From NCBI GenBank assembly GCA_910589555.1, contig CAJUTE010000006.1:32406-96405 (forward strand): a stretch of DNA of 64,000 nt, in the 5' to 3' direction. The notes below the pieces were generated by a model, which was given only the letters and a program-made list of their open reading frames with translations, had not been told where the DNA came from and ran no database searches. Both the position numbers and the translations under genes were made by a program. This document shows positions 2,820 through 34,307 of this stretch, piece by piece; the stretch's first letter is position 1, and each line of letters begins with the position of its first letter. This DNA comes from an uncultured Muribaculum sp. Lineage in GTDB: Bacteria; Bacteroidota; Bacteroidia; Bacteroidales; Muribaculaceae.

Positions 2820-4523
2820 TTATTTAACATTTGCAGCCGCTATTTTATTCGCCATAGCCACCGCTTTGGTGATATGGTCGCAGATGTGATCCCGTCCAAT
2901 GAGTTCGTCAATCTTCGATTTTTCGAGAATCTGTCTAACCGAAGGATTGACTCCCGAAAGAACCACATGAATACCGTCGGCTTGCGAAGACTTGATAAGC
3001 ATCTCAAGATTGTGCACGCCTGTAGCATCGATAAACGGCACTCGACGCATACGGATAATACGCACCACGGCAGTCTTTCCTCCGATTGTGGTGCGCATGA
3101 GTTCGTCAAATTTAGTAGCGACACCGAAGAAGAACGGACCGTCAATCTCATACACGCTCACACCGTCGGCTACATTGAGCACCTCATGCTGGGTGAGATC
3201 AGTGCCTTCAGCCACATCAAGCTGCTCGGAATAGACACGCACCTGGGTGTTTTCCATAACGCGGCGCAGGAAGAGGATGATGGCAAGCAGCAATCCTATC
3301 TCAATAGCGATGGTGAGGTCAAAGATCACGGTGAGCAAGAAAGTCACGATAAGCACCGACACATCGCTCTTAGGCGACTTGAAAATGCCCACCACCGTGC
3401 GCCAGCCACTCATATTATATGACACCATAATAAGTACTGCGGCGAGGCAGCTCATGGGCACGAGATTGATAAGCGGCATCAGGAACAGGAATATCAACAG
3501 CAGCACTACAGTGTGGATAATACCGGCTACCGGGGTGCGTCCGCCATTGGTGATATTGGTCATTGTGCGGGCGATGGCACCGGTGACAGGAATACCGCCG
3601 AAGAAGGGCACCACCACATTGGCTATACCCTGACCGATAAGCTCGGTGTTGCTGTTGGTGCGCGAACCGGTGACACCATCGGCAACCGTAGCCGACAGCA
3701 ACGACTCAATGGCGCAAAGGATGGCGATGGTGAATGCCGACGGCATCAACTGGTTGATGGTGTTCATCGACAGTTCGAAGCCTTGCGGCTGAGGGATATC
3801 GGTCGGGAGCGAACCGAAGCGGTCGCCGATAGTCTCAATTTCAAGTCCCGGGAACAGGCTTTCGGCAAAATAGACGCCGATAGTCGCGATAATGATGGCG
3901 ATAAGCGAACCGGGAAGCTTCTTGGAGATTTTCGGAGTCAATATTATAATAAGGAGTGACACCACGCCCACCACGAGAGTGGCAAGATGAGTGTTGCCGA
4001 AGTTTTGGATGAACACGCCCCACTTCGACAGGAACTCACTCGGCACATCGGTCAAGCCAAGTCCGAAAAAGTCATTGATCTGAGTGGAAAAAATCGTTAG
4101 GGCGATACCGCTCGTGAATCCTACCACTATAGGATAAGGGATGAACTTGATGACAGTTCCAAGGTGGAACAGACCAAGCATTATCAAAATCAATCCAGCC
4201 ATGAGAGTGGCGATGGCAAGCCCCTCAAGACCGAAATTCTGGATAATACTGTAGACAATCACGATAAAAGCTCCGGTGGGACCACCTATCTGCACTGAGT
4301 TTCCGCCAAATGCAGAAACGAGAAATCCGCCGATGATGGCAGTGATAAGACCGATGGTAGGGCTCACACCTGACGCAATACCGAATGCGATAGCAAGAGG
4401 AAGAGCAACAATACCTACAACAACTCCGGCAACAAGATCATCCTTAAACCGGCTCATAGAATAATGACGTAAAGCCGAAAAAAACTTTGGCTTAAAGTCA
4501 ATTGCACCTGATAATTTCATCAC
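2820..4523 (-). CDS. SulP family anion (sulfate/bicarbonate) permease with a C-terminal STAS domain
   Basis: Multi-TM SulP-like N-terminus (FKPKFFSALRHYS..DLVAGVVVGIVALPLAIAFGIASG) and a STAS-like C-terminus (VYEIDGPFFFG..IRMRRVPFIDATG). Confidence 0.85.
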   Translation of the reverse strand: MMKLSGAIDFKPKFFSALRHYSMSRFKDDLVAGVVVGIVALPLAIAFGIASGVSPTIGLITAIIGGFLVSAFGGNSVQIGGPTGAFIVIVYSIIQNFGLEGLAIATLMAGLILIMLGLFHLGTVIKFIPYPIVVGFTSGIALTIFSTQINDFFGLGLTDVPSEFLSKWGVFIQNFGNTHLATLVVGVVSLLIIILTPKISKKLPGSLIAIIIATIGVYFAESLFPGLEIETIGDRFGSLPTDIPQPQGFELSMNTINQLMPSAFTIAILCAIESLLSATVADGVTGSRTNSNTELIGQGIANVVVPFFGGIPVTGAIARTMTNITNGGRTPVAGIIHTVVLLLIFLFLMPLINLVPMSCLAAVLIMVSYNMSGWRTVVGIFKSPKSDVSVLIVTFLLTVIFDLTIAIEIGLLLAIILFLRRVMENTQVRVYSEQLDVAEGTDLTQHEVLNVADGVSVYEIDGPFFFGVATKFDELMRTTIGGKTAVVRIIRMRRVPFIDATGVHNLEMLIKSSQADGIHVVLSGVNPSVRQILEKSKIDELIGRDHICDHITKAVAMANKIAAANVK

Positions 4524-4773
4524 AATGATGATTTAAACTATTTATAATTCGAAAAACAAGGCGCAAAATTAACAATTTTTTTCGATTTATGAAAATTACT
4601 AATTCCATGCCACCACTCTCTGTAATATAATACACTAATAATAAATGCATTAAATATAATGTCGTGCAATTTTTCAATAATAATTTTTTGTTGCTATTTA
4701 CCTTTTATGTTAATTTGGCATATAGGCATACAGCAACACGACAACCAACAATATCATCAAATAAAATCGCATC

Positions 4774-5172
4774 ATGACAATATCAATCGCAGACAGCATC
4801 AATTGTGTCGGACTCCCCATTATCGTAACGACAAGTTACCCTTATCTGAATTTTCTCATTGACACCGGAGCAAACTTAAATTCTATCTTCGACTTTGTAT
4901 ATGAAGGATTGCCTGATTTTTTCACTCCATTGGAATCAAAGCAATCCCAATATGGAATAGAAGGAAATGAGATGTCCTACAGCATGGCAAAAGCAACGAT
5001 TGAGTTCAACGACACAAAAGCGGAAACAGCATTTTCGGTAATGAACGCCGATAGAGTGGTTCGCCGACTTCAAGAAGACAATGGTTTTCAACTTCATGGT
5101 ATATTAGGCACACAATTCCTGAAAGACAACAAGTGGATTATTGATTTTGGAAAACTCGAAATCATAACTTAA
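4774..5172 (+). CDS. Stand-alone retropepsin-like (clan AA) aspartic protease, 132 aa
   Basis: Active-site block FLIDTGANLNSI and the C-terminal GILGTQFLKDNKWIIDF block typical of retropepsin-fold domains. No signal peptide. AT-rich coding sequence. Confidence 0.7.
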   Translation: MTISIADSINCVGLPIIVTTSYPYLNFLIDTGANLNSIFDFVYEGLPDFFTPLESKQSQYGIEGNEMSYSMAKATIEFNDTKAETAFSVMNADRVVRRLQEDNGFQLHGILGTQFLKDNKWIIDFGKLEIIT

Positions 5173-5185
5173 TTTTGTCGTCACT

Positions 5186-6613
5186 ATGTCACACTCGTTC
5201 GAAAAAACTTTAGCCGAAATCATACAAATGTATGACTGCACGGATGTAAAAGAGCAACAAACATGCTATGGATTCCGTATTCTGAATAATATACTGCACA
5301 TATCCGCCTACAATCATGTAATAAAAACATTTCTTTGCAAAAGGTTAGAGGAAAAGCCGCCGATTGACACACTGCTCATCGGAAAATCTCTCACATACAA
5401 TAATTGGATAGGCGAAAACAATAATTGGATAGGTGATATTAAATCAATTTTACATCTACCTTATTGTCATCAAGTCATAAAAAATCTGATATTTGAAGAT
5501 TCCAAAAGATATTATTCTGAGCATGGATTATTGATTGACAAGGGAACCATGTCAATTCTATGTTATGCGCCGGGGAGAATCGACGAAAGCATCATTATTC
5601 CGGAGGGGATAATCACCTTAGACTATGGATGTTTCAATTATAATCGATATGCGAAATACATCACGCTGCCCTCATCCATACGTAATATACAAGGTTTAGA
5701 AGCTCTTCCGGAATTGAGACACATCACAATCAAGGGGGATACAGGAAAATACATCACTAAAGATGGAATAATTTTTCTTAATGATGGCAGTCAACTTCCT
5801 TATTTCGTTCCTCGTGCCAACACAAACGCCATAACATCTTACGAATCAGGAGATTTGTTTAAAAGAATATTGTGGGCTGTTAGAGAAAAGGTCATCAAAG
5901 ATAGATGGACCGGAATCAAGTGTAACAATATATTATCCGACTACGGCAGTTATTATGGAGAACCTAATCATTCAGTAGAAATCATCTATCAAGGTGGTTT
6001 CTATCAGCAAACATGGTACATTTCGATGAATCGACGAGCGAGAATCATTATAGGCTATTCATTCTTAGGATTTTGGAAAGATAGCGTTGGCAAATGTATT
6101 GAGCAGAGTATATCATATGAGTCAGAACACACTGATAAACAACATATTTACGAGCCATTAAGCGATTGTAACCCCTGTTGCAAATACCGTAATAATTGCG
6201 AGGCTATATACAGGTCAAACTATGTGTATGCACGTAATCTTCATAGAAGACTTAAAGGGTTTGGCGATTTTAAGATAGACGATTACGGGGAGGTCGAATT
6301 TGATATGCCCACAACAGCTTCATTTGAATATATAAAGCATATTTTATTGAGATTTCTTGACATAGCATTTGAGCTGAGGACGAAACACTTGATATTGGAA
6401 CAACCACTGCAGCCATCTCTTTTTTATAATCCTGACGCCCTCATATCTGATGAAGAATGTTTTGAACCTTTTCCTTTTAATTACTATTACCCGATAGATT
6501 CAGAGTCAAAGGGCTTCAAATCAGAAATAGAAAATCTGATTTACAATGATCCCGATTTCTATCATGAAGAGCCTGATGATAGCGACACAGAGGATAGGGA
6601 GCCTCCTTTTTGA
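5186..6613 (+). CDS. Orphan 475-aa cytoplasmic protein with a short BspA-type LRR-like segment, a Cys cluster and an acidic tail
   Basis: Starts 13 nt after the protease stop. IIIPEGIITLDYGCFNYNRYAKYITLPSSIRNI resembles LRR_5 repeats. Other features: CNPCCKYRNNC cluster, tail EEPDDSDTEDREPPF, no signal peptide. Confidence 0.6.
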   Translation: MSHSFEKTLAEIIQMYDCTDVKEQQTCYGFRILNNILHISAYNHVIKTFLCKRLEEKPPIDTLLIGKSLTYNNWIGENNNWIGDIKSILHLPYCHQVIKNLIFEDSKRYYSEHGLLIDKGTMSILCYAPGRIDESIIIPEGIITLDYGCFNYNRYAKYITLPSSIRNIQGLEALPELRHITIKGDTGKYITKDGIIFLNDGSQLPYFVPRANTNAITSYESGDLFKRILWAVREKVIKDRWTGIKCNNILSDYGSYYGEPNHSVEIIYQGGFYQQTWYISMNRRARIIIGYSFLGFWKDSVGKCIEQSISYESEHTDKQHIYEPLSDCNPCCKYRNNCEAIYRSNYVYARNLHRRLKGFGDFKIDDYGEVEFDMPTTASFEYIKHILLRFLDIAFELRTKHLILEQPLQPSLFYNPDALISDEECFEPFPFNYYYPIDSESKGFKSEIENLIYNDPDFYHEEPDDSDTEDREPPF

Positions 6614-6726
6614 AAAAAATCGGGGTGAGGTAAACTTTTTACAGGGGAGAGTGTTTTAGAAGTAAGAGAAGGCATTTTTCTGGCGTTATTAAAAAGCCAA
6701 CTCCGTAAAAAATGCTATACCTTCTC

Positions 6727-6768
6727 AGCCCCCTTCCTCCACCGGAAGGTGGGCTCTTTTTTTTGCCC
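6727..6768 (+). terminator. Strong intrinsic terminator closing the AT-rich two-gene island
   Basis: agccccc-ttcc / ggaagg-t-gggct stem (about 11 bp, one bulge) followed by cTTTTTTTT. It lies about 113 nt after the stop at 6613. Confidence 0.75.
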
Positions 6769-6840
6769 TGCCGTAACTTCTTTCTTGCGCAATAGCCGGG
6801 GATTGACTAATTTTATCTTTAAAATCAACTTTATACCGTT

Positions 6841-8091
6841 ATGTTCAACAATACCCACAATGAAATACCGGTGCTCCTGCTCACCGGCTACCTCGGGAGC
6901 GGTAAAACCACCCTCCTCAACCGCATCTTGACCAACGAACGCGGCATACGCTTCGCGGTAATAGTCAACGACATAGGCGAAGTGAACATCGACGCATCGC
7001 TCATCCAGAAAGGCGGCGTGGTGGGAAATGACGATTCCGGCGACCTAGTGGCTCTCCAGAACGGATGCATCTGCTGCACGCTGAAAATGGATCTCGTGAA
7101 CCAACTGACCGAAATCGCCGCCACAGGAAAATTTGACTACATCGTGATCGAAGCAAGCGGAATATGCGAGCCGGAGCCTATCGCACAGACCATCTGCTCC
7201 ATCCCGGCGATGGCACCCAAATTCTCGCGTGGCACAATGTCTAAACTCGATTGCATAGCCACGGTGGTCGACGCACTGAGGATGAAGAGCGAATTTGGAT
7301 GCGGAGAGGATCTGCAATCAACGAAAATCGACGAGGAAGATATCGAAAATCTCATCATCCAGCAGATAGAGTTCTGCAACGTAATCATCCTTAACAAGAT
7401 ATCGGAGGTGACACCCACCGAAGCTGGGCGAATCAAGGCGGTGATACGCGCATTGCAGCCTAAAGCGAAGATAATAGAGTGTGACTATGCCGATTTCAAC
7501 TTCGAGGAGATACTCGGCACGGGAATGTTTGATTTCGAGGATGTAGCCACTTCAGCCACATGGATACGCGAGCTTGAAGGACACCATGACCACGACGAGG
7601 AAGAGGAGGAGCATCACCACCATGACCATGAGCATCACCATCATGACCATGAGCACTGCGACGACGAGCATTGCACTTGCCACCACCATCATCATCACCA
7701 CGGCGAGGGCGAAGCTGAGGAGTATGGCATACAGACGATGGTCTACTGCCGCCGACAAGGTTTTGACCTCAACAAATTTGACCGTTTCATCGCTACAGGA
7801 TGGTATGCCAACATAATCCGCGCCAAGGGAATACTCTATTTCTCAAGCAACCGCGATATGTGCTACCTATTCGAGCAAGCGGGTGTTCAGAAAAAGCTCA
7901 CCGAAGTGGGATTATGGTATGCCGCCGCGCCTGCCGACGAGTTGCAGCAGATGATGGAACGCGACGCTACACTGCGCCGTGACTGGGACGAACAGTATGG
8001 CGACCGCATGATAAAACTCGTGTTCATAGGGCAAAACCTCGACCGCGACGCCATAACGGCTTCGCTCGACGCCTGTCTCGCAAAATACTAA
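6841..8091 (+). CDS. COG0523/CobW-family G3E GTPase (putative zinc metallochaperone) with a His-rich insert
   Basis: Walker A GYLGSGKTTLLN, CxCC motif GCICCTLK, and insert HHDHDEEEEEHHHHDHEHHHHDHEHCDDEHCTCHHHHHHHGEGE. Confidence 0.85.
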   Translation: MFNNTHNEIPVLLLTGYLGSGKTTLLNRILTNERGIRFAVIVNDIGEVNIDASLIQKGGVVGNDDSGDLVALQNGCICCTLKMDLVNQLTEIAATGKFDYIVIEASGICEPEPIAQTICSIPAMAPKFSRGTMSKLDCIATVVDALRMKSEFGCGEDLQSTKIDEEDIENLIIQQIEFCNVIILNKISEVTPTEAGRIKAVIRALQPKAKIIECDYADFNFEEILGTGMFDFEDVATSATWIRELEGHHDHDEEEEEHHHHDHEHHHHDHEHCDDEHCTCHHHHHHHGEGEAEEYGIQTMVYCRRQGFDLNKFDRFIATGWYANIIRAKGILYFSSNRDMCYLFEQAGVQKKLTEVGLWYAAAPADELQQMMERDATLRRDWDEQYGDRMIKLVFIGQNLDRDAITASLDACLAKY

Positions 8092-29022: not shown

Positions 29023-30930
29023 ATGGGAAAGATTATTGGTATAGACTTAGGAACAACCAATTCCTGTGTTTCTGTCCTTGAAGGTAATGACCCTGTCGTT
29101 ATCCCTAACAGCGAAGGCCGTAACACCACTCCATCTATAGTTGCATTTATCGCCGGCGGCGAACGTAAGGTGGGCGATCCTGCCAAGCGTCAAGCAATCA
29201 CCAACCCTGAAGGCACGATTTATTCAATCAAGCGTTTCATGGGTGAAAATTACAATGAAGTAGCAGAAGAGATCAAGCGTGTGCCTTACGAAGTGGGCAA
29301 ATCAGACAACGGCGGCGTGCGAGTACTCGTGGACGGTCGTGAATACACTCCTCAAGAGATTTCGGCAATGATTCTTCAAAAGATGAAGAAGACCGCCGAG
29401 GATTATCTTGGACAGACTGTAGACGAAGCCGTGATCACCGTTCCGGCATACTTCAACGATTCACAGCGTCAGGCTACTAAGGAAGCAGGCGAAATCGCCG
29501 GTCTTAAGGTGCGTCGTATTGTCAACGAGCCTACCGCAGCAGCGCTTGCTTACGGTCTTGACAAGAGCGATAAGGATCAGAAAATCGCAGTGTTTGACCT
29601 TGGTGGCGGTACATTTGATATCTCCATCCTTGAACTTGGCGACGGCGTGTTTGAGGTGAAGTCAACCAACGGTGACACTCACCTTGGCGGTGATGACTTT
29701 GACCACGTGATCATCGACTGGCTTGCCGATGACTTCCAGCAGGAATACAACGTAGACCTCCGCAAAGATTCAATGGCTCTTCAGCGTCTTAAAGAGGCCG
29801 CAGAAAAGGCTAAGATTGAACTTTCAAGCTCAACCACTACTGAAATCAACCTTCCTTATATAATGCCTGTCGACGGTGTTCCACGCCACTTGGTAAAGAC
29901 TCTTACCCGCGCAAAATTCGAGCAGCTTGCCGACAAGCTTATCCAGGCAACCGTTAAGCCATGTGAACAAGCTCTTAAGGATGCCGGCATGAGCGCATCG
30001 GATATTGATGAAGTCATCCTCGTGGGTGGTTCAACCCGTATCCCGGCAATCCAGGAGATTGTCAAGAAGTTCTTCGGCAAAGCTCCGTCAAAGGGCGTTA
30101 ACCCCGACGAAGTTGTAGCAGTGGGCGCCGCTATCCAAGGCGGTGTGCTTTCAGGCGACGTGAAGGATGTGCTTCTTCTTGATGTTGTGCCTCTGTCAGT
30201 AGGTATCGAAACTCTCGGTGGCGTAATGACCAAGCTTATCGAAGCCAACACCACTATCCCTACCCGCAAGAGCGAGGTATTCTCAACCGCTGTCGACAAT
30301 CAGCCGTCAGTTGAAATCCATGTGCTTCAGGGCGAACGTCCTCTTGCTAAGGATGACAAGACCCTTGGCAAGTTCCACCTTGACGGAATCGCACCCGCAC
30401 CTCGTGGAATTCCGCAGATCGAAGTGACATTTGAAATCGACGCCAACGGTATTCTTAATGTATCGGCAAAGGATAAAGCCACCGGCAAGGAGCAGAGCAT
30501 CCGTATCGAGGCTTCATCAGGCTTGACCGATGCTGAGATCAAGAGAATGAAGGACGAAGCAGCTGCCAACGCTGCAGCCGACGAAGCTGAAAAGCAGCGT
30601 ATCGACAAGCTCAACCACGCTGACGCTGTCATCTTCCAGACCAAGAAGCAGCTCGAAGAACTTGGCGCAGCAATTCCTGCCGACAAGAAAGCTACTATCG
30701 AATCAGCTCTTTCTCGTCTTGAAGAAGCTCACAAGGCTCAGAACATCGAAGGAATCGACTCTGCCATCAGCGAAATCCAGAAGGCATTCGGCGAAGCTCA
30801 GCAAGATATCCTCAACGCCCAACAGCAGGCTCAGGCAGGCGCACAGCAGCAAGGCGGCGCACAGCAGGGTCCCGCTAACAACGGCGGCGATGACCACGTG
30901 ACCGACGTAGACTTCGAGGAAGTGAAGTAA
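29023..30930 (+). CDS. dnaK: Molecular chaperone DnaK (Hsp70)
   Basis: [29 protein letters not shown] and a C-terminal EEVK-type tail. Confidence 0.98.
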
Positions 30931-30950
30931 ACGATATCATAAAATAAACT

Positions 30951-30995
30951 GATGCGGGATGCAGCCCGACAGGGATGCGTCCCGCATCTTCTTTT
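30951..30995 (+). terminator. Intrinsic terminator after dnaK
   Basis: 9-bp stem gatgcggga/tcccgcatc followed by ttctttt. Confidence 0.75.
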
Positions 30996-31019
30996 AAAAA
31001 CCTTTAATTTTTCTTTTTT

Positions 31020-31262
31020 ATGGAAATCAACGAAATTATCAGCCAGTTGAAGGACAAGTTAGGCGATTCTGTCAATGTAGAGCAGATAACAGAGAAACTG
31101 GGTGGATTTGACCACTCCAATATGTCGTTTACGGAGATTGTAGCGAAACTGAAAGATGGTAACATTCTCGGTGATCTTGATGGAGATGGCAAAGTGGAAT
31201 CCAATATCGATGAAATCAAAGGTAAAGCCTCCCAGATGTTCGGCGGCATCTTTGGCAAATAA
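31020..31262 (+). CDS. Hypothetical 80-aa protein with a DxDxDG calcium-loop-like motif
   Basis: GDLDGDGKVE motif. Lower-GC coding sequence directly after the dnaK terminator. Confidence 0.45.
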   Translation: MEINEIISQLKDKLGDSVNVEQITEKLGGFDHSNMSFTEIVAKLKDGNILGDLDGDGKVESNIDEIKGKASQMFGGIFGK

Positions 31263-31491
31263 CCTTGAAACAAAAAATACGGAATTCCGTAAGAACGATT
31301 ACCCCAATGATTAAAAAGGAGCATAGTCAGCTGATTGTGCTCCTTTATATTGCCGTCAATATTAGTATTCATTTCGCTATATTTAGCTCATATTGAGCTG
31401 GTTATATTTTCGAGAGGCAAAATCAGCATTAGGGTGGCATATAACTTCCTATTTGAGCCAAATATTGTTTTTATATACTCAAAACTTTTGC

Positions 31492-31499
31492 TATATTTG
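31492..31499 (+). promoter_or_regulatory. -7 box TATATTTG upstream of the DUF4143-type ATPase gene
   Basis: Exact TAnnTTTG 16 nt before the ATG at 31515. Supports the internal start over the ORF-track start at 31335. Confidence 0.45.
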
Positions 31500-31514
31500 C
31501 AAAAACTTTTGGAT

Positions 31515-32723
31515 ATGATTAAAACAATAGAAAATATCCCGAGACCAAAATATCTTGATAAGATTTTTAGATATAAGGGTAAAGGCGTGATAAAGGTGCT
31601 GACGGGTCAACGGCGCGTCGGGAAGAGCTGCATATTAAATTCCGTCGAGGAGAAACTCCGCCAGTCATCACCAACCGCTAATTTCATTCGCATCAATCTT
31701 GAGGATTTTGCTTTTTCTCATATCAAAAGTGCGTCAGATTTAAACGAGGAAATTGTCAGGCATCTGTCGGATTCATCCATGAACTACATATTCATTGATG
31801 AAATTCAGGAGATTGAGAATTTTGATAAGGTTATTCGTTCGCTATGTCTCGATGCACGGAACGACATCTATGTCACAGGAAGCAATTCATCAATGTTGTC
31901 TTCCGAAATCGCCTCGCGGCTTGCCGGACGAAGTATAGAGATTAGAGTGCATCCTCTTTGTTATGATGAGTTTCTTCTGTTTCATTCACTTGGAGATTCA
32001 GATGAAAGCTTAGACCTATATTTGAGATTTGGAGGAATGCCATATTTGAGGAATCTTCCCAAACGAGAGACGTGGAATGAATATCTCACAGGAATTACCG
32101 ATGCTTTGGTTTACCGTGACATCGTAAGCCGACATTCCATCCGCAACAATGATTTTTTGCAAAGGTTACTGCTTTTCCTGGCCGATAATACCGGACAGAT
32201 TTTTACGGCAAAACGCATAGCCGACTATCTGAAATCGCAACGTGTAGCCGGAACCGTGAACAGTGTACAAACATACGCCGACTATATTTGCGATGCCTAT
32301 ATCACTAATAAAGTGCGACGATGGGATATAGTGGGAAAGAAATTCTTTGAGATAGGTGAAAAATATTATTTCGAGGATATCGGAATACGCAATTCTATTA
32401 TAGGCTATCGGCCAATGGATATTGGGGCAATCCTCGAAAACGTCATTTACAACAAATTGTCAGGAGATGGTTACGACATAAAGGTCGGTGTGCTTTCAAA
32501 AAACAAAGAAATTGATTTTGTCGCTGAAAAAGATGGGGAGCGAAAATACATTCAAGTTGCGGTAAATGTCTATGACAAAGCCACTGCTGACCGCGAGTTT
32601 GGCAATCTCGAATCGATTGGCGACAATTATGAAAAGTTGGTTGTCACACTACACGATTCGGCACCAAACACTCAAAACGGCATCAAAATGCTTTCTCTCC
32701 GTGACTTCTTGAATATGCCTTAA
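31515..32723 (+). CDS. AAA+ ATPase of the COG1373 / DUF4143 type with a C-terminal nuclease-like module
   Basis: Walker A GQRRVGKS, Walker B IFIDEIQ, and the C-terminal block EIDFVAEKDGERKYIQVA. Confidence 0.75.
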   Translation: MIKTIENIPRPKYLDKIFRYKGKGVIKVLTGQRRVGKSCILNSVEEKLRQSSPTANFIRINLEDFAFSHIKSASDLNEEIVRHLSDSSMNYIFIDEIQEIENFDKVIRSLCLDARNDIYVTGSNSSMLSSEIASRLAGRSIEIRVHPLCYDEFLLFHSLGDSDESLDLYLRFGGMPYLRNLPKRETWNEYLTGITDALVYRDIVSRHSIRNNDFLQRLLLFLADNTGQIFTAKRIADYLKSQRVAGTVNSVQTYADYICDAYITNKVRRWDIVGKKFFEIGEKYYFEDIGIRNSIIGYRPMDIGAILENVIYNKLSGDGYDIKVGVLSKNKEIDFVAEKDGERKYIQVAVNVYDKATADREFGNLESIGDNYEKLVVTLHDSAPNTQNGIKMLSLRDFLNMP

Positions 32724-32941
32724 CCTATGCAGGCAGGTATTATTGATTTATCTTGATAACAATCAATTTTAAAGTTGCCCATATTTGGAACACTTTAACA
32801 TAATGCTCTATTTACCTATGTTTAGCTGAGATAGAAAAAAAAATAAATGGATAATAAACAATAGAAAGGGTTGCAAATATTTGGTTACTGCCCTTTCTGT
32901 TGCAATCTCGTGCTTTTTTTTCGTAACTTTGGCATCGGGTT

Positions 32942-33511
32942 ATGGACGGGAACTTCAATACATATATTGACCATATCGAGCCTGAGTTCTGGCGTGAACT
33001 TTGCGTCAGCCACGGCAAGCTGCGCCATTATAATCGCGGCGAAGAATTTCTACACTTTGGCGAGGTCGGGAAATACATTGGCATGGTCAAAGATGGCACT
33101 CTCAAATATGTGACATATTCAGCCACAGGAACAGAGCACGTGATAGGACTGATCTTCCCCAATGAGTTTGTGGTCGACTGGCCTTTCGTGTTATACGAGC
33201 AGCCGTCGAGAGTTGCCATAATAGCGTCTTCGCAATGTGCGATATATCGCCTTCCGGTTGAAATGGCGCGCCAAAGAATGAAGGAAGAACCCGAGTTTAT
33301 GGAACGTATGATGCACTGCACCGAAGCAGTGTTTTCCACCGTCTATGACAGATACATCGATCTTTATGGCAAGACGCCGCAGCAGCGATATGCCGAACTC
33401 GTTGAAAAGCATCCCGATCTGTTCTCCCTCTTTTCACTTCATGACATCGCGTCATTCCTGAATATCACCCCAACCCATATGAGCCGCCTGCGAAAAAACT
33501 ACGGCAAATAA
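32942..33511 (+). CDS. Crp/Fnr family transcriptional regulator
   Basis: cNMP-binding-like N-terminus and a C-terminal HTH (LHDIASFLNITPTHMSRLRK). Confidence 0.8.
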   Translation: MDGNFNTYIDHIEPEFWRELCVSHGKLRHYNRGEEFLHFGEVGKYIGMVKDGTLKYVTYSATGTEHVIGLIFPNEFVVDWPFVLYEQPSRVAIIASSQCAIYRLPVEMARQRMKEEPEFMERMMHCTEAVFSTVYDRYIDLYGKTPQQRYAELVEKHPDLFSLFSLHDIASFLNITPTHMSRLRKNYGK

Positions 33512-33584
33512 AAACTCTCAACAAATGTTGAGAGTTTTTATTTTTATTGGTGGTAACTTTGCGTCATTACAAAATGAATGGATT

Positions 33585-34307
33585 ATGACAAAGTTCAGCT
33601 TTTTCCTATTAGCGGCAAGCCTGTGCTTGGCATCATGCACGACACACAAACTACCGGCATTCTCCAATCAACAATGGCACGTGGATCCACACAGCGGAAA
33701 TGCAGTCAGCACGGCAGGGACCGAACTGGCATTCGGTTCGGAATGGATGATTACCGACACCACCCTCATGCAGACTGCCGAACAAATAGCCGCCTATCCC
33801 AAATTATCGTCCCATCTCGCGAGCGGCATAGCTCAATTCCCTGAAATCAAAGTAGACTCGGTGCTTTTTTACAATCCTCATCGAGGGCTTCTATTCGTAG
33901 CCTACCATCAGGCAAAGCCTCTGAAGCCCACATCAGAAATTGGTTTATACAATGACTCTGCCGTCGTATACAGCAAGGAGTATGCTCGAATTTTTGGAAA
34001 CATGACTACATATATCGATGACGACGGGTGGGAGATAGGTCCCTCGGAATCGGTTTATTCCAACGTGCGTTACAACCCTAACCACAAGCGGCTCGTACTC
34101 TTGCAGAGGCTACCGCATAGCAATATTGCCGTTTTCGTGATTTGCTACACAAATACCAAAAAAGGAAAATGGTGGGAGAACTATCCTCCTGGCACATTAT
34201 GGAATATTGACCTCGGCGATACCGACAATCTCGAACGAATCTCATCATTTTTGCATTCCTCACGGAATCTTGCAGTTGAAAACTTAAAATTAGCTCTCCC
34301 TGAATAA
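33585..34307 (+). CDS. Hypothetical lipoprotein
   Basis: Lipobox LCLASCTT. Its stop lies 1 nt before the next ATG (34309), suggesting translational coupling. Start moved to the ATG at 33585. Confidence 0.6.
   Translation: MTKFSFFLLAASLCLASCTTHKLPAFSNQQWHVDPHSGNAVSTAGTELAFGSEWMITDTTLMQTAEQIAAYPKLSSHLASGIAQFPEIKVDSVLFYNPHRGLLFVAYHQAKPLKPTSEIGLYNDSAVVYSKEYARIFGNMTTYIDDDGWEIGPSESVYSNVRYNPNHKRLVLLQRLPHSNIAVFVICYTNTKKGKWWENYPPGTLWNIDLGDTDNLERISSFLHSSRNLAVENLKLALPE

Follow-up and report, generated by a model that had tools for sequence, protein, structure and literature searches.

Retropepsin-like proteases, with Ddi1 and the rickettsial APRc among the single-domain examples (Pfam clan AA: Asp_protease_2, RVP and gag-asp_proteas), are common in bacteria and in crAss-like phages, which are the most abundant phages of the human gut. 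To our knowledge, almost nothing is known about the function of these bacterial and crAss-phage proteins, and literature searches on PDC-M08, DUF3871, the crAss001 aspartyl protease and retropepsins in connection with defence found nothing useful. In the present study, we analysed a small AT-rich two-gene island within a 64-kb stretch of a gut Bacteroidales chromosome (the whole of which is referred to as the window), in which a gene for a retropepsin-like protein (gene 1) precedes that of a much larger partner (gene 2).

A described counterpart is PDC-M08, the cassette FAM_03167>>FAM_00414, for which its authors report 381 occurrences within established defence systems (Payne et al., bioRxiv 10.1101/2024.01.29.577857) and which is itself an unvalidated PADLOC candidate for phage defence. 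PDC-M08 and the window pair share a small (~100-130 aa) retropepsin-like protein and a two-gene cassette; however, the protease-like gene is second in PDC-M08 and first in the window pair, and the window copy is neither embedded in nor beside defence genes. In addition, PDC-M08A gave no match for the 475-aa partner or for 15 other non-protease neighbours from related loci (E up to 1; up to 0.1). The aspartyl protease of crAss-like phages (e.g. cr85_1, Kehishuvirus) is homologous with gene 1, with 29-38% identity over 95% of the latter, and its host range (Bacteroidales) is shared with the island, although the phage protein has 166-179 aa vs 132 aa for gene 1. All 48 phage records with a gene 1 homologue are Crassvirales, in which the gene order is dUTPase, aspartyl protease, DNA polymerase I; no phage record contained a partner of the gene 2 (EPPF) family.

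For the partner, parallels exist with SSB, with β-clamp binders and with leucine-rich repeat (LRR) proteins. The C-terminal tip of E. coli SSB is DDDIPF (PMC5872125), and that of phage HK620 SSB, NDYPPF, binds Sak4 and is needed for this binding (PMC5928155). The gene 2 product likewise has a folded domain, a long disordered linker and an acidic tip ending in x-P-F; however, its core has no OB fold and no SSB profile match (Pfam, NCBIfam, AF2 topology and Foldseek), and its family has an extra internal E-x-[FC]-P-F and a clamp-motif-like QxSLF. An SSB with a PF tip was not found in the crAss-phage regions and loci that we examined. The QPSLF sequence in the disordered tail resembles the β-clamp-binding consensus QLxLF (PMC4549789), a predicted site by short-motif match alone, and the resemblance to the SSB tip is similarly a short-motif match only. 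BspA-type LRR proteins (4gt6 and pneumococcal PcpA, 4cp6) resemble residues ~100-185 of the gene 2 product, which differs from them by having no signal peptide and by the fusion of its LRR to an unrelated core and tail. Accessory and defence hotspots of phage satellites and prophages are known, for example, from P4-like satellites and PICIs. The DUF3871 elements described below are also small and integrase-bearing, with replication genes, no capsid genes and variable genes at the end; however, the protease is constant, not swappable, in close DUF3871 elements, the satellite status of these elements is putative, and the window copy lacks the rest of the element.

Composition and architecture of the island

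The island (4524-6840) has a G+C content of 0.364 vs 0.528 in the next 2.3 kb and 0.487 across the whole window, making it the lowest of all 2.3-kb stretches of the 64 kb. Its flanks lie at ~52-53% vs ~36% for the island, and GC3 is 0.36-0.39 in both island genes vs 0.65 in cobW. These data support that the segment is compositionally foreign, as an earlier sequence-only reading had concluded from hand counts of G+C per 60-nt line; its counts of 17 at 5401 and 24 at 6001 are exact, and its count of 36 at 7001 is 35 when measured. The two closely spaced, co-oriented genes and the strong terminator of that reading were also recovered, and all features are collected in Table 1. The terminator region is 97-100% conserved among relatives; in the presumed promoter region, sigma-70-like matches are generic and at the level expected by chance.

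Table 1 Features of the island and its flanks (positions within the window)
Feature	Position	Strand	Basis or remark
SulP gene	2820-4523	-	Left flank
AT-rich 250-nt intergenic region, presumed promoter region, divergent from sulP	4524-4773	+	Sequence reading; 95-100% identity in conspecific contigs
Gene 1, 132-aa retropepsin-like protein (clan AA, Asp_protease_2-type)	4774-5172	+	PADLOC PDC-M08B match, family alignment
Active-site motif D30-T-G-A33	4861-4872	+	Direct reading
C-terminal retropepsin signature block G109-ILGTQFL116	5098-5121	+	G109, G112, F115 and L116 invariant (family alignment)
Spacer between gene 1 and gene 2, 13 nt, operon arrangement	5173-5185	+	Sequence reading
Gene 2, 475-aa three-part protein (LRR N-domain, EPPF core, disordered acidic tail)	5186-6613	+	ORF, profiles, alignments, AF2 model
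Hypervariable, recombining tract	5240-6620		Sliding identity, trees; left edge ~5240 or ~5720 depending on allele
In-frame 21-nt tandem duplication (NNWIGE / NNNWIGD)	5397-5436	+	Repeat search; missing in alleles P0004 and P0005
BspA-type leucine-rich repeat (LRR_5) segment, ~residues 100-185, approximate	5483-5740	+	Family profile
EPPF-family core domain, residues 211-405: helix, 4-strand meander, Cys loop, helix, strand, helix	5816-6400	+	Homology and AF2 model
Invariant cysteines C304, C328, C332, C338	6095-6199	+	Alignments A5 and A6
Disordered acidic tail, 70 residues, pI 4.05	6401-6610	+	pLDDT <50; composition and motif census across family
Tail motif QPSLF (residues 409-413)	6410-6424	+	Alignments, motif census
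Tail motif EPFPF	6464-6478	+	Alignments, motif census
C-terminal motif EPPF	6599-6610	+	Alignments, motif census
Intrinsic-terminator-like hairpin 6727-6755 and T8 6757-6764	6727-6764	+	Stem dG -19.7 kcal/mol
CobW/COG0523 gene	6841-8091	+	Right flank

The window contains no tRNA and, anywhere in its 64 kb, no homologue of the integrase, AAA_24, DUF3871 or ~720-aa proteins of the elements described below, in agreement with the earlier remark that neither integrase nor tRNA is visible. Flanking direct repeats are limited to one 15-nt pair (14/15 matching) inside both flanking genes, which we rejected as an att site because it lies in conserved coding sequence and because a two-copy match so short is likely to be due to chance. 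The neighbours are genes for SulP, CobW, an S41 peptidase, DUF3316 and topoisomerase IV, of which SulP, CobW and the S41 peptidase are housekeeping genes, with no defence island.

Gene 1 is a retropepsin-like protein by alignment

Judged by the family alignment, the product of gene 1 is a conserved single-domain retropepsin-like protein with an intact DTGA site, as the sequence-only reading had recognized. The motif lies within FLIDTGAN (residues 27-34), where hydrophobic residues precede it, and the wider family keeps [FL][IL]DTG[AS]. This motif, the G-I-L-G-x-x-F-L block and a single ~130-aa lobe that would have to dimerize are shared with clan AA retropepsins; however, gene 1 is below the family cut-offs and some of its relatives lack the catalytic Asp. 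The active-site motif is lost in two variants, P0015 (YTG) and P0033 (DTD). In P0015, which is the most abundant element-borne protease (876 contigs), Tyr replaces the catalytic Asp, so that proteolysis cannot be essential everywhere.

The best profile match of gene 1 is PADLOC PDC-M08B (PDLC04405, E 9e-8, residues 1-130 vs model positions 1-123 of 127), which is the sole defence-library match of the gene pair and concerns gene 1 only. PDC-M08B is the best profile for all relatives of gene 1 as well (E 9e-8 to 4e-8 with gene 1 included, nearly the whole model), and in distant relatives it is the G109-L116 block that shows the best alignment with the PDC-M08B models. Gene 1 itself falls below every Pfam and NCBIfam cut-off, scoring 13.4 bits with Asp_protease_2 (PF13650) vs a cut-off of 24.3. 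Its homologues L026a, L033a and L034 exceed this gathering score (27.9-30.6 bits, full model), and gene 1 is therefore assigned to Asp_protease_2 by transitive homology; L034, which comes from a phage contig, has a hydrophobic N-terminal extension. An AF2 monomer model built with 17 homologues was unusable (pLDDT 48), Foldseek with this model found nothing at E<=1e-3, and a PDB profile search with the protease family gave no match.

Gene 2 combines an LRR, a rare core and an acidic tail

The short BspA/LRR_5-like stretch, the Cys cluster and the acidic tail ascribed to the gene 2 product by the sequence-only reading are all present. With the single protein, Pfam LRR_5 matched residues 135-169 below threshold (E 0.012, 15.9 bits vs a cut-off of 27.7), and the family profile A6 matched the BspA-type LRR structures 4gt6 (E 3.9e-13), PcpA 4cp6 (E 2.3e-9) and 4h09 (E 4.7e-6). 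This LRR has just one and a half to two repeats and is missing from half of the gene 2 family. The protein had been regarded as an orphan, which no longer holds: its C-terminal 265 aa belong to a small family, found directly after the protease in integrase/AAA_24/DUF3871 elements, with stand-alone (~250 aa) and LRR-fused (~430-480 aa) forms, and residues 223-475 are collinear with residues 24-262 of the stand-alone 262-aa protein of L012 (BLASTP E 3e-4). A 908-aa match from the exhaustive family search (P0048) was rejected as a spurious repeat protein.

The EPPF core is a very rare α/β domain (AF2 model with pLDDT 59.7 and pTM 0.60) with four invariant Cys and without a detectable fold relative. 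When PDB and BFVD were searched by Foldseek with the core model, no match reached E<=1e-3, and the best entries (PcyA, a p32-like protein and DR_1245) had TM-scores <0.45. The core has no family in Pfam, NCBIfam, PHROGs or PADLOC, stand-alone EPPF proteins and the 133-195-aa upstream genes match nothing in PADLOC, NCBIfam or Pfam, and PHROGs gave no family for the product of gene 1 or gene 2. The four cysteines, which sit in or beside a loop of low model confidence, may possibly form a metal site. At its end, the tail reads EDREPPF; a PF C-terminus is present in about three-quarters of the listed family members and [QKH]x[ST]LF in 10 of the 12 long forms.

The pair is fixed at one junction and gene 2 is hypervariable

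Within the species cluster, the pair is fixed between sulP and cobW. It occupies the same junction in L006-L009, L011/L016, L124-L126 and L129, and is present in all of the 24 contigs read that encode an identical CobW, among which there is no empty site. A metagenome scan with CobW returned just relatives of <=73% identity, none of them syntenic. At two distant loci, sulP and cobW are divergent and only 220-260 bp apart, with nothing inserted between them, which hints weakly that the junction was once empty. The island is not strain-variable: every relative seen has it at the same junction, and it is the sequence of the partner that varies instead.

Among conspecific contigs, the partner gene has 62-85% nucleotide identity vs 98-100% for the flanks, and 60-nt sliding identity is 48-88% in the tract vs 97-100% in the flanks, with a sharp right breakpoint at the gene 2 stop codon. 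In addition, the partner allele tree conflicts with the flank tree, and dS is 0.34-0.66 in the partner vs 0.04 in cobW. These data show that recombination swaps deeply diverged alleles of gene 2 against a background of a near-identical protease gene and near-identical flanks. No copy seen at this locus has a disrupted ORF, and both genes are under purifying selection in at least five lineages; dN/dS values are 0.11-0.12 for gene 1 and 0.26-0.38 for gene 2. A DGR (diversity-generating retroelement) was considered as a source of the variability and rejected, given that substitutions affect all four bases (A 0.12-0.27, C 0.17-0.37) and mostly third codon positions, with no adenine bias and no RT nearby.

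The module matches the end of integrating elements

Relatives of the protease (56-74% identity) and a stand-alone or LRR-fused EPPF protein are the terminal genes of AT-rich elements of ~10 kb in Bacteroidales, which have a G+C content of 0.32-0.37 vs 0.364 for the island. The gene order is integrase, ~720-aa protein, 89-aa protein, AAA_24, DUF3871, a variable stretch, the retropepsin-like gene and the partner gene, with the full backbone present in L001, L012, L029 and others. The protease lies 1-5 kb downstream of DUF3871 in every element seen that has a DUF3871 protein with >=70% identity to the L001 one and sufficient contig sequence on the downstream side. As the composition of the island (0.36) and its gene order equal those of the terminal module of these elements, its acquisition route, which the sequence-only reading had left unclear, is no longer obscure. 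Protease and EPPF partner are found together in the elements; outside Muribaculaceae, a second retropepsin-like paralogue takes the place of the EPPF partner. This paralogue is degenerate (DTS or DKR) in the elements of Bacteroides and Odoribacter, which suggests that heterodimers may be formed. That all close elements contain the protease is as compatible with a function intrinsic to the element as with a role as cargo.

Proposed role and alternatives

Taking these results together, we favour, tentatively, the explanation that the island is a stranded terminal accessory module of the ~10-kb element family that has been kept by the host, and that it may act as a two-component conflict module for anti-phage or anti-element exclusion. 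A role in conflict with phages or other mobile elements is the most likely one. The hypervariable gene 2 protein would be the recognition and docking subunit, with its LRR and core binding a variable invader protein and its tail motifs docking on to the readers of SSB tips or clamp-binding motifs, e.g. replication or recombination factors. Catalysis or clamping would fall to the conserved subunit, the retropepsin-like dimer, which would cleave the docked client or the tail itself, and the invading phage or element would in the end be impeded in its DNA replication or recombination. As the signature of conflict we count the divergent partner vs its near-identical flanks, the sharp breakpoints, the discordant trees and the excess of dS; as the link to defence, the best profile of the protease; and as the link to replication, the Crassvirales protease gene beside that for DNA polymerase I, the phage-SSB-like tail tip, given that the HK620 tip binds Sak4 and that the AAA_24 protein of the elements is a weak Sak4 match, and the [QKH]x[ST]LF conserved in long forms. 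Counted against a conflict module are the unvalidated status of PDC-M08, the unusable protease model, the shortness of the tail-motif matches, the missing PDC-M08A partner, the housekeeping neighbours, the partner's lack of an effector domain or invariant catalytic-type residues, and the Asp-less P0015.

In a wider and considerably more speculative form, which we think unlikely to hold as a whole, the EPPF proteins would be a new class of mobile-element hub or decoy. Their tails would mimic the SSB tip (..EEPPF) and QxSLF, a swappable LRR or WG-repeat domain (the latter from a separate gene) would set the target, and the retropepsin-like dimer, shared with crAss-like phages, would cleave or lock captured replication or recombination proteins, with the allele diversity reflecting an arms race of crAss-like phages, satellite-like DUF3871 elements and Bacteroidales hosts.

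The locus is a minimal two-gene, host-fixed form of a module whose other copies are carried by undescribed integrating elements in gut Bacteroidales, and it places a conserved enzyme-like gene next to one of the most variable genes of the region. Should the pair prove to be a conflict system, it would provide the first functional anchor for the candidate PDC-M08B family and would point to replisome-docking motifs as weapons in the conflicts of gut phages, hosts and elements; if it does not, the fold of the EPPF core, the family of elements and the recombination hotspot with its sharp edges are still new.

Unlikely, although the best placed of the alternatives, is an accessory role in replication or recombination of the element, in which the EPPF protein would be an unconventional DNA-metabolism adaptor or an SSB substitute. 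Its acidic ..PPF tip would recruit the AAA_24/Sak4-like protein or SSB partners of the host, the retropepsin-like protein would assist it, much as its crAss-phage homologue may act beside DNA polymerase, and the chromosomal copy would be a leftover. The architecture of the tail (folded core, disordered linker, acidic PF tip) mirrors that of SSB, the HK620 tip is required for Sak4 binding, the elements encode an AAA_24 protein with a weak Sak4-like match (phrog_1366), all close elements keep the protease, and the crAss homologue is flanked by the genes for dUTPase and PolA. Yet the window copy, without AAA_24 or backbone, still has two unbroken ORFs that evolve under purifying selection, a replication accessory would not usually be hypervariable or have trans-lineage alleles, the core lacks an OB fold and any match to SSB models, and the variable LRR or WG-repeat add-ons are hard to account for.

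It is improbable that the pair is a decaying relic, or a selfish addiction-type pair of no present benefit to the host, which persists by its small size and by recombination with element-borne copies. The pair is stranded without integrase or backbone, its composition shows no drift towards the host's, some relatives no longer have the catalytic Asp, and L024 has a truncated protease and a partner without the PF tail; however, the ORFs are intact in all copies seen at the locus, dN/dS values lie well under 1, conservation of the promoter region and terminator is 95-100%, and each of the 24 contigs read with the identical CobW has the pair.

More improbable still is a protease-gated toxic effector, a strict form of the idea put forward in the sequence-only reading, in which the protease would activate or release a toxin domain of the 475-aa protein in abortive infection. 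Tight operon coupling, the PDC-M08B match and the mobile-element origin fit such a mechanism, and the disordered tail could serve as a cleavable inhibitor, but no toxin, nuclease, pore, NADase or other effector domain was found in the partner by Pfam, NCBIfam, PADLOC, PHROGs, PDB profiles or Foldseek, the residues kept invariant in its core (Cys, Trp, Tyr and Arg) are not catalytic Asp/Glu/His sets, and the commonest protease variant lacks the catalytic Asp. BspA-type LRR proteins are usually surface proteins, and a cell-surface or secreted BspA-like adhesin with a maturation protease would fit the structural matches (a 'cell surface protein' and PcpA) and the small lipoproteins and WG-repeat lipoprotein that adjoin the protease in some loci, but it is very unlikely, since on inspection neither the N-terminus of gene 1 (no signal or lipoprotein sequence) nor that of gene 2 (MSHSFEKTLAEIIQMYDCTD, no hydrophobic signal segment) looks exported, as the sequence-only reading had also found, the C-terminus is the acidic EPPF tail and not a sorting (T9SS) domain, and stand-alone family members have no LRR.

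A second stranded copy of the pair is present in another MAG (L010), and contigs of the elements also occur in the IMG/VR viral collection.

Organization of the island

The two co-oriented genes lie between sulP and cobW, and the ORF coordinates bear out the layout described in the sequence-only reading of this region. The genes are separated by 13 nt and, as that reading had also proposed, are closed by a strong terminator of their own. The G+C content is 0.364 in 4524-6840, compared with 0.528 in the next 2.3 kb and 0.487 in the whole window, and the island is the lowest-GC 2.3-kb stretch within these 64 kb; of the earlier hand counts of G+C, 17 and 24 were exact and the third is 35 rather than 36. 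In agreement with the reading, the 64-kb window lacks tRNAs, integrases and other element genes. The sole flanking direct repeat is a 15-nt repeat (14/15 match) located within the two flanking genes, which probably arose by chance.

The CobW protein carries a long His/Asp/Glu-rich insert (HHDHDEEEEEHHHHDHEHHHHDHEH...CHHHHHHH; residues ~235-295, window 7540-7720) between its GTPase and C-terminal domains, which is typical of the metal-chaperone members of the family. A second low-GC patch (30600-33700, G+C about 0.40-0.41) lies downstream of an Hsp70 (DnaK-type) gene.

Coordinates of the island, of the domains of its products and of the related loci compared (L-handles denote related loci or contigs; other positions refer to the window or to protein residues)
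Feature	Location	Remarks
SulP/STAS permease gene	2820-4523	minus strand; one flank
Gene 1 ORF, 132 aa	4774-5172	plus strand
Gene 2 ORF, 475 aa	5186-6613	plus strand
Hairpin closing the operon	6727-6755	dG -19.7 kcal/mol, then T8
CobW/COG0523 gene	6841-8091	other flank
15-nt direct repeat, CAACAATACC[T/C]ACAA	4406-4420 and 6846-6860	within the coding sequences of sulP and cobW, at their 5' ends
AAA_14/DUF4143 ATPase gene	31335-32723	second low-GC patch
Crp-like cNMP-binding protein gene	32942-33511	second low-GC patch
260-aa ORF without assignment	33525-34307	second low-GC patch
Gene 2, BspA-type LRR	residues ~100-185	
Gene 2, family-specific core	residues 211-405	
Gene 2, disordered acidic tail	residues 406-475	pI 4.05
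Tail motif [QKH]x[ST]LF (QPSLF)	residues 409-413	conserved
Tail motif E-x-[FC]-P-F	residues 427-431	conserved
Tail motif [DE]-x-P-F	C-terminal end	conserved
Elements	L001:285-9217, L012:309-9868, L029:532-8101, L031	L031: two tandem copies
P0015 gene	L001:8001-8399	adjoining EPPF gene intact
Second stranded copy	L010:7545-10261	= L018; MAG JAMPHF010000002.1
Protease and paralogue	L020:4619-5523, L022:10001-10850, L021:10001-11307, L031:9290-10636, L027:64-1169	
WG-repeat neighbours	L012:8401-8994, L020:3427-4473, L023:4609-5505, L030:4178-4804, L114:9617-10543	
Phage loci	L127:4902-7708, L128:4884-8034	Crassvirales cr85_1; Kehishuvirus 'tikkala'

The partner protein and the EPPF family

The gene 2 product is a three-part fusion of an LRR domain, a family-specific core and a tail. 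Pfam LRR_5 reached an E value of only 0.012 on the sequence itself; a profile of the long-form family matches the BspA-type LRR structures 4gt6 (E 3.9e-13), 4cp6 (E 2.3e-9) and 4h09 (E 4.7e-6). The LRR_5-like stretch, Cys cluster (four invariant Cys) and very acidic tail noticed earlier are all confirmed. The view of this protein as an orphan did not hold, as its last 265 residues are collinear from end to end with stand-alone 255-271-aa proteins that adjoin the protease elsewhere (BLASTP E 3e-4), sharing the landmarks RW..I...N, C..C.....C..IY and the C-terminal EPPF after which the family is named here. This EPPF family has very few members: only 11 clusters came out of a word-indexed profile search across 5.8 billion, and HMMER run exhaustively over 1.84 billion representatives gave 16 matches at E<=1e-3, of which one is spurious.

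Besides the four Cys, the residues invariant in the family are Arg, Trp and Tyr, and together they do not make up a typical catalytic set. The AF2 model of the core is of medium confidence (pTM 0.60) and starts with a helix and a meander of four strands; a loop modelled with low confidence, which bears the invariant Cys, leads on to a helix, a strand and a helix, and the disordered tail comes last; Foldseek found no relatives of the core in PDB or BFVD, and no family in Pfam, NCBIfam, PHROGs or PADLOC matched it. The tail includes the peptides QPLQPSLFYN, EECFEPFPFNYY and DTEDREPPF. In motif alone, the C-terminal [DE]-x-P-F resembles the SSB tip DDDIPF (PMC5872125) and, more closely still, the tip NDYPPF of the phage HK620 SSB, which is needed for Sak4 binding (PMC5928155), and [QKH]x[ST]LF likewise resembles the clamp-binding consensus QLxLF (PMC4549789).

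The N-terminal part of gene 2 contains an in-frame 21-nt tandem duplication (NNWIGE/NNNWIGD; window 5397-5436) that the alleles P0004 and P0005 do not have. At a further locus (L024:8177-9741), a protease fragment (residues 72-132 only) precedes a 444-aa long-form EPPF protein without the PF tip, and this pair looks like a decaying copy. This contig is labelled 'uncultured Staphylococcus sp.' and the MAG of locus L016 Lachnospiraceae, both in mismatch with their Bacteroidales gene content.

The retropepsin-like protein and its other partners

The gene 1 product displays the motifs FLIDTGAN (residues 27-34) and GILGTQFL (residues 109-116), and on its own falls under all Pfam and NCBIfam retropepsin thresholds (E 0.05-0.2). 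Its top library match, over the full length, is the PADLOC candidate PDC-M08B (E 9e-8). The family comprises 27 clusters at 90% identity, each from Muribaculaceae-type Bacteroidales, with homologues at 31-44% identity reaching Bacteroides, Odoribacter and other MAGs. Three distant relatives score above the Asp_protease_2 gathering threshold across the whole model, and the assignment of gene 1 as retropepsin-like therefore rests on transitive homology. The AF2 model reached a pLDDT of only 48, and neither Foldseek nor a PDB profile search lent structural support. The DTG motif is widely kept across the family. The most abundant element-borne homologue (P0015; 876 contigs; uncultured Duncaniella) has LIYTGAS in place of LIDTGA, replacing the catalytic Asp with Tyr, and another homologue (P0033) has DTD at this motif. 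That the commonest variant lacks the catalytic Asp counts against models requiring proteolysis everywhere.

The family is also encoded by phages, with 48 records, all Crassvirales, at 29-38% identity and annotated 'aspartyl protease', the gene lying between those for dUTPase and DNA polymerase I. It overlaps the start of the next gene, and one phage-contig homologue (L034) has a hydrophobic N-terminal extension.

In elements of Bacteroides, Odoribacter and other MAGs, the protease is partnered instead by another retropepsin-like protein, a paralogue of 140-148 aa whose site is degenerate (DTS or DKR, in FLIDTSS or LLDKRMK); at some loci a small lipoprotein gene separates the pair. This arrangement suggests a heterodimer with one dead half-site. 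In addition, the protease gene repeatedly has, directly up- or downstream, a gene for a WG-repeat (PF14903) protein that looks cytoplasmic and whose acidic-aromatic C-terminus, FEGDxxxYWNI[DE], is conserved.

Origin from an integrating element

On contigs of Duncaniella and other Muribaculaceae, the last gene but one of a ~9.5-kb element encodes the protease. The element runs integrase, ~720-aa protein, 89-aa protein, AAA_24 (phrog_1366, a weak Sak4-like match), DUF3871, variable stretch, protease and EPPF protein, followed by a second integrase or unrelated DNA. Counting only elements whose contig extends downstream, the protease lies 1-5 kb downstream of DUF3871 in every element seen with a DUF3871 protein at least 70% identical to that of the Duncaniella element L001; more distant DUF3871 elements are without it. 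IMG/VR holds protease-bearing elements as viral contigs, one of which (L029) encodes an LRR-fused 448-aa EPPF protein like that of gene 2. These ~10-kb AT-rich integrating elements of Bacteroidales, in which we found no capsid genes (L001, L012, L029 and L031) and which also occur in tandem arrays, apparently constitute an undescribed family. Since their G+C content (0.32-0.37) is as low as that of the island, the latter is best read as the terminal module of a DUF3871-type element, left without its backbone, which supplies the acquisition route previously considered unclear; the island as an intact integrative element was rejected. A second, independent stranded chromosomal copy (L010) contains a 147-aa ORF, a 146-aa protease and a 556-aa WG-repeat lipoprotein at G+C 0.34-0.39 between housekeeping genes at 0.51, with no EPPF protein and no element backbone.

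Retention at the junction and diversity of gene 2

The possibility that close strains differ in presence of the island was not upheld, as the pair is present at the sulP-cobW junction of each recovered relative (L006-L009, L011/L016, L124-L126 and L129) and on each of the 24 contigs read that carry the gene for an identical CobW, with no empty junction among them. At two distant metagenome loci, divergent sulP and cobW genes are just 220-260 bp apart.

Gene 2 itself is hypervariable, being 62-85% identical to its counterparts on contigs whose flanks are 98-100% identical, and the variable tract has sharp edges, the right one at the gene 2 stop codon. By Nei-Gojobori estimates (dS for the window against L006, dN/dS as the range over three pairwise comparisons), dS was 0.043 for cobW, 0.024 for the protease, 0.335 for whole gene 2 and 0.66 for its core, with dN/dS of 0.02-0.035, 0.11-0.12 (against L016, the window and L006 proteases being identical), 0.26-0.38 and 0.33-0.36 respectively. 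The allele tree conflicts with the flank tree: the allele of L125, a conspecific, shares 70% identity with the window allele and is closest to the L016 allele, whereas the L124 allele, whose genome is more distant, shares 86% identity with the window allele, and the L126 allele is a mosaic. Substitutions favour third codon positions and show no adenine bias, which rules out a DGR or local hypermutation and indicates that the diversity comes from recombination among old alleles.

Proposed function

A conserved enzyme-like gene beside a recombining, hypervariable, modular binding protein, together with mobile carriage and host retention after loss of the element, is the signature of a conflict module, and we propose this function for the pair with modest confidence. 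The partner would act as the recognition and docking subunit, its LRR and core binding a variable invader protein and its tail motifs engaging readers of SSB tips or clamp motifs among the replication or recombination proteins. Next, the retropepsin-like dimer may cleave or clamp the captured protein, or the tail itself, such that replication of the invader DNA would be blocked. The data show the origin, architecture, selection pattern and hypervariability of the pair; its interactions, any proteolysis and any phenotype are inferred. As the main alternative, the pair may belong to the element's own replication or recombination machinery, and the partner would connect the AAA_24/Sak4-like protein as an adaptor with an SSB tip. 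This reading agrees with the protease being constant among the elements and lying beside PolA in crAss-like phages, but not with the retention of the pair without a backbone or with the allele diversity of gene 2. Membership of PDC-M08, a phage-defence candidate of components A and B, was rejected, as the pair lacks component A and sits in another context; gene 2 is neither an SSB, as it has no OB fold, nor a surface BspA protein, as inspection shows no export signal.

Our literature search returned nothing naming PDC-M08, describing DUF3871 elements or discussing the crAss-phage aspartyl protease, and the partner family is in none of the libraries searched. The protease has relatives in PDC-M08B and among the aspartyl proteases of crAss-like phages, and the pair can be placed broadly with the candidate conflict cassettes that mobile elements carry.
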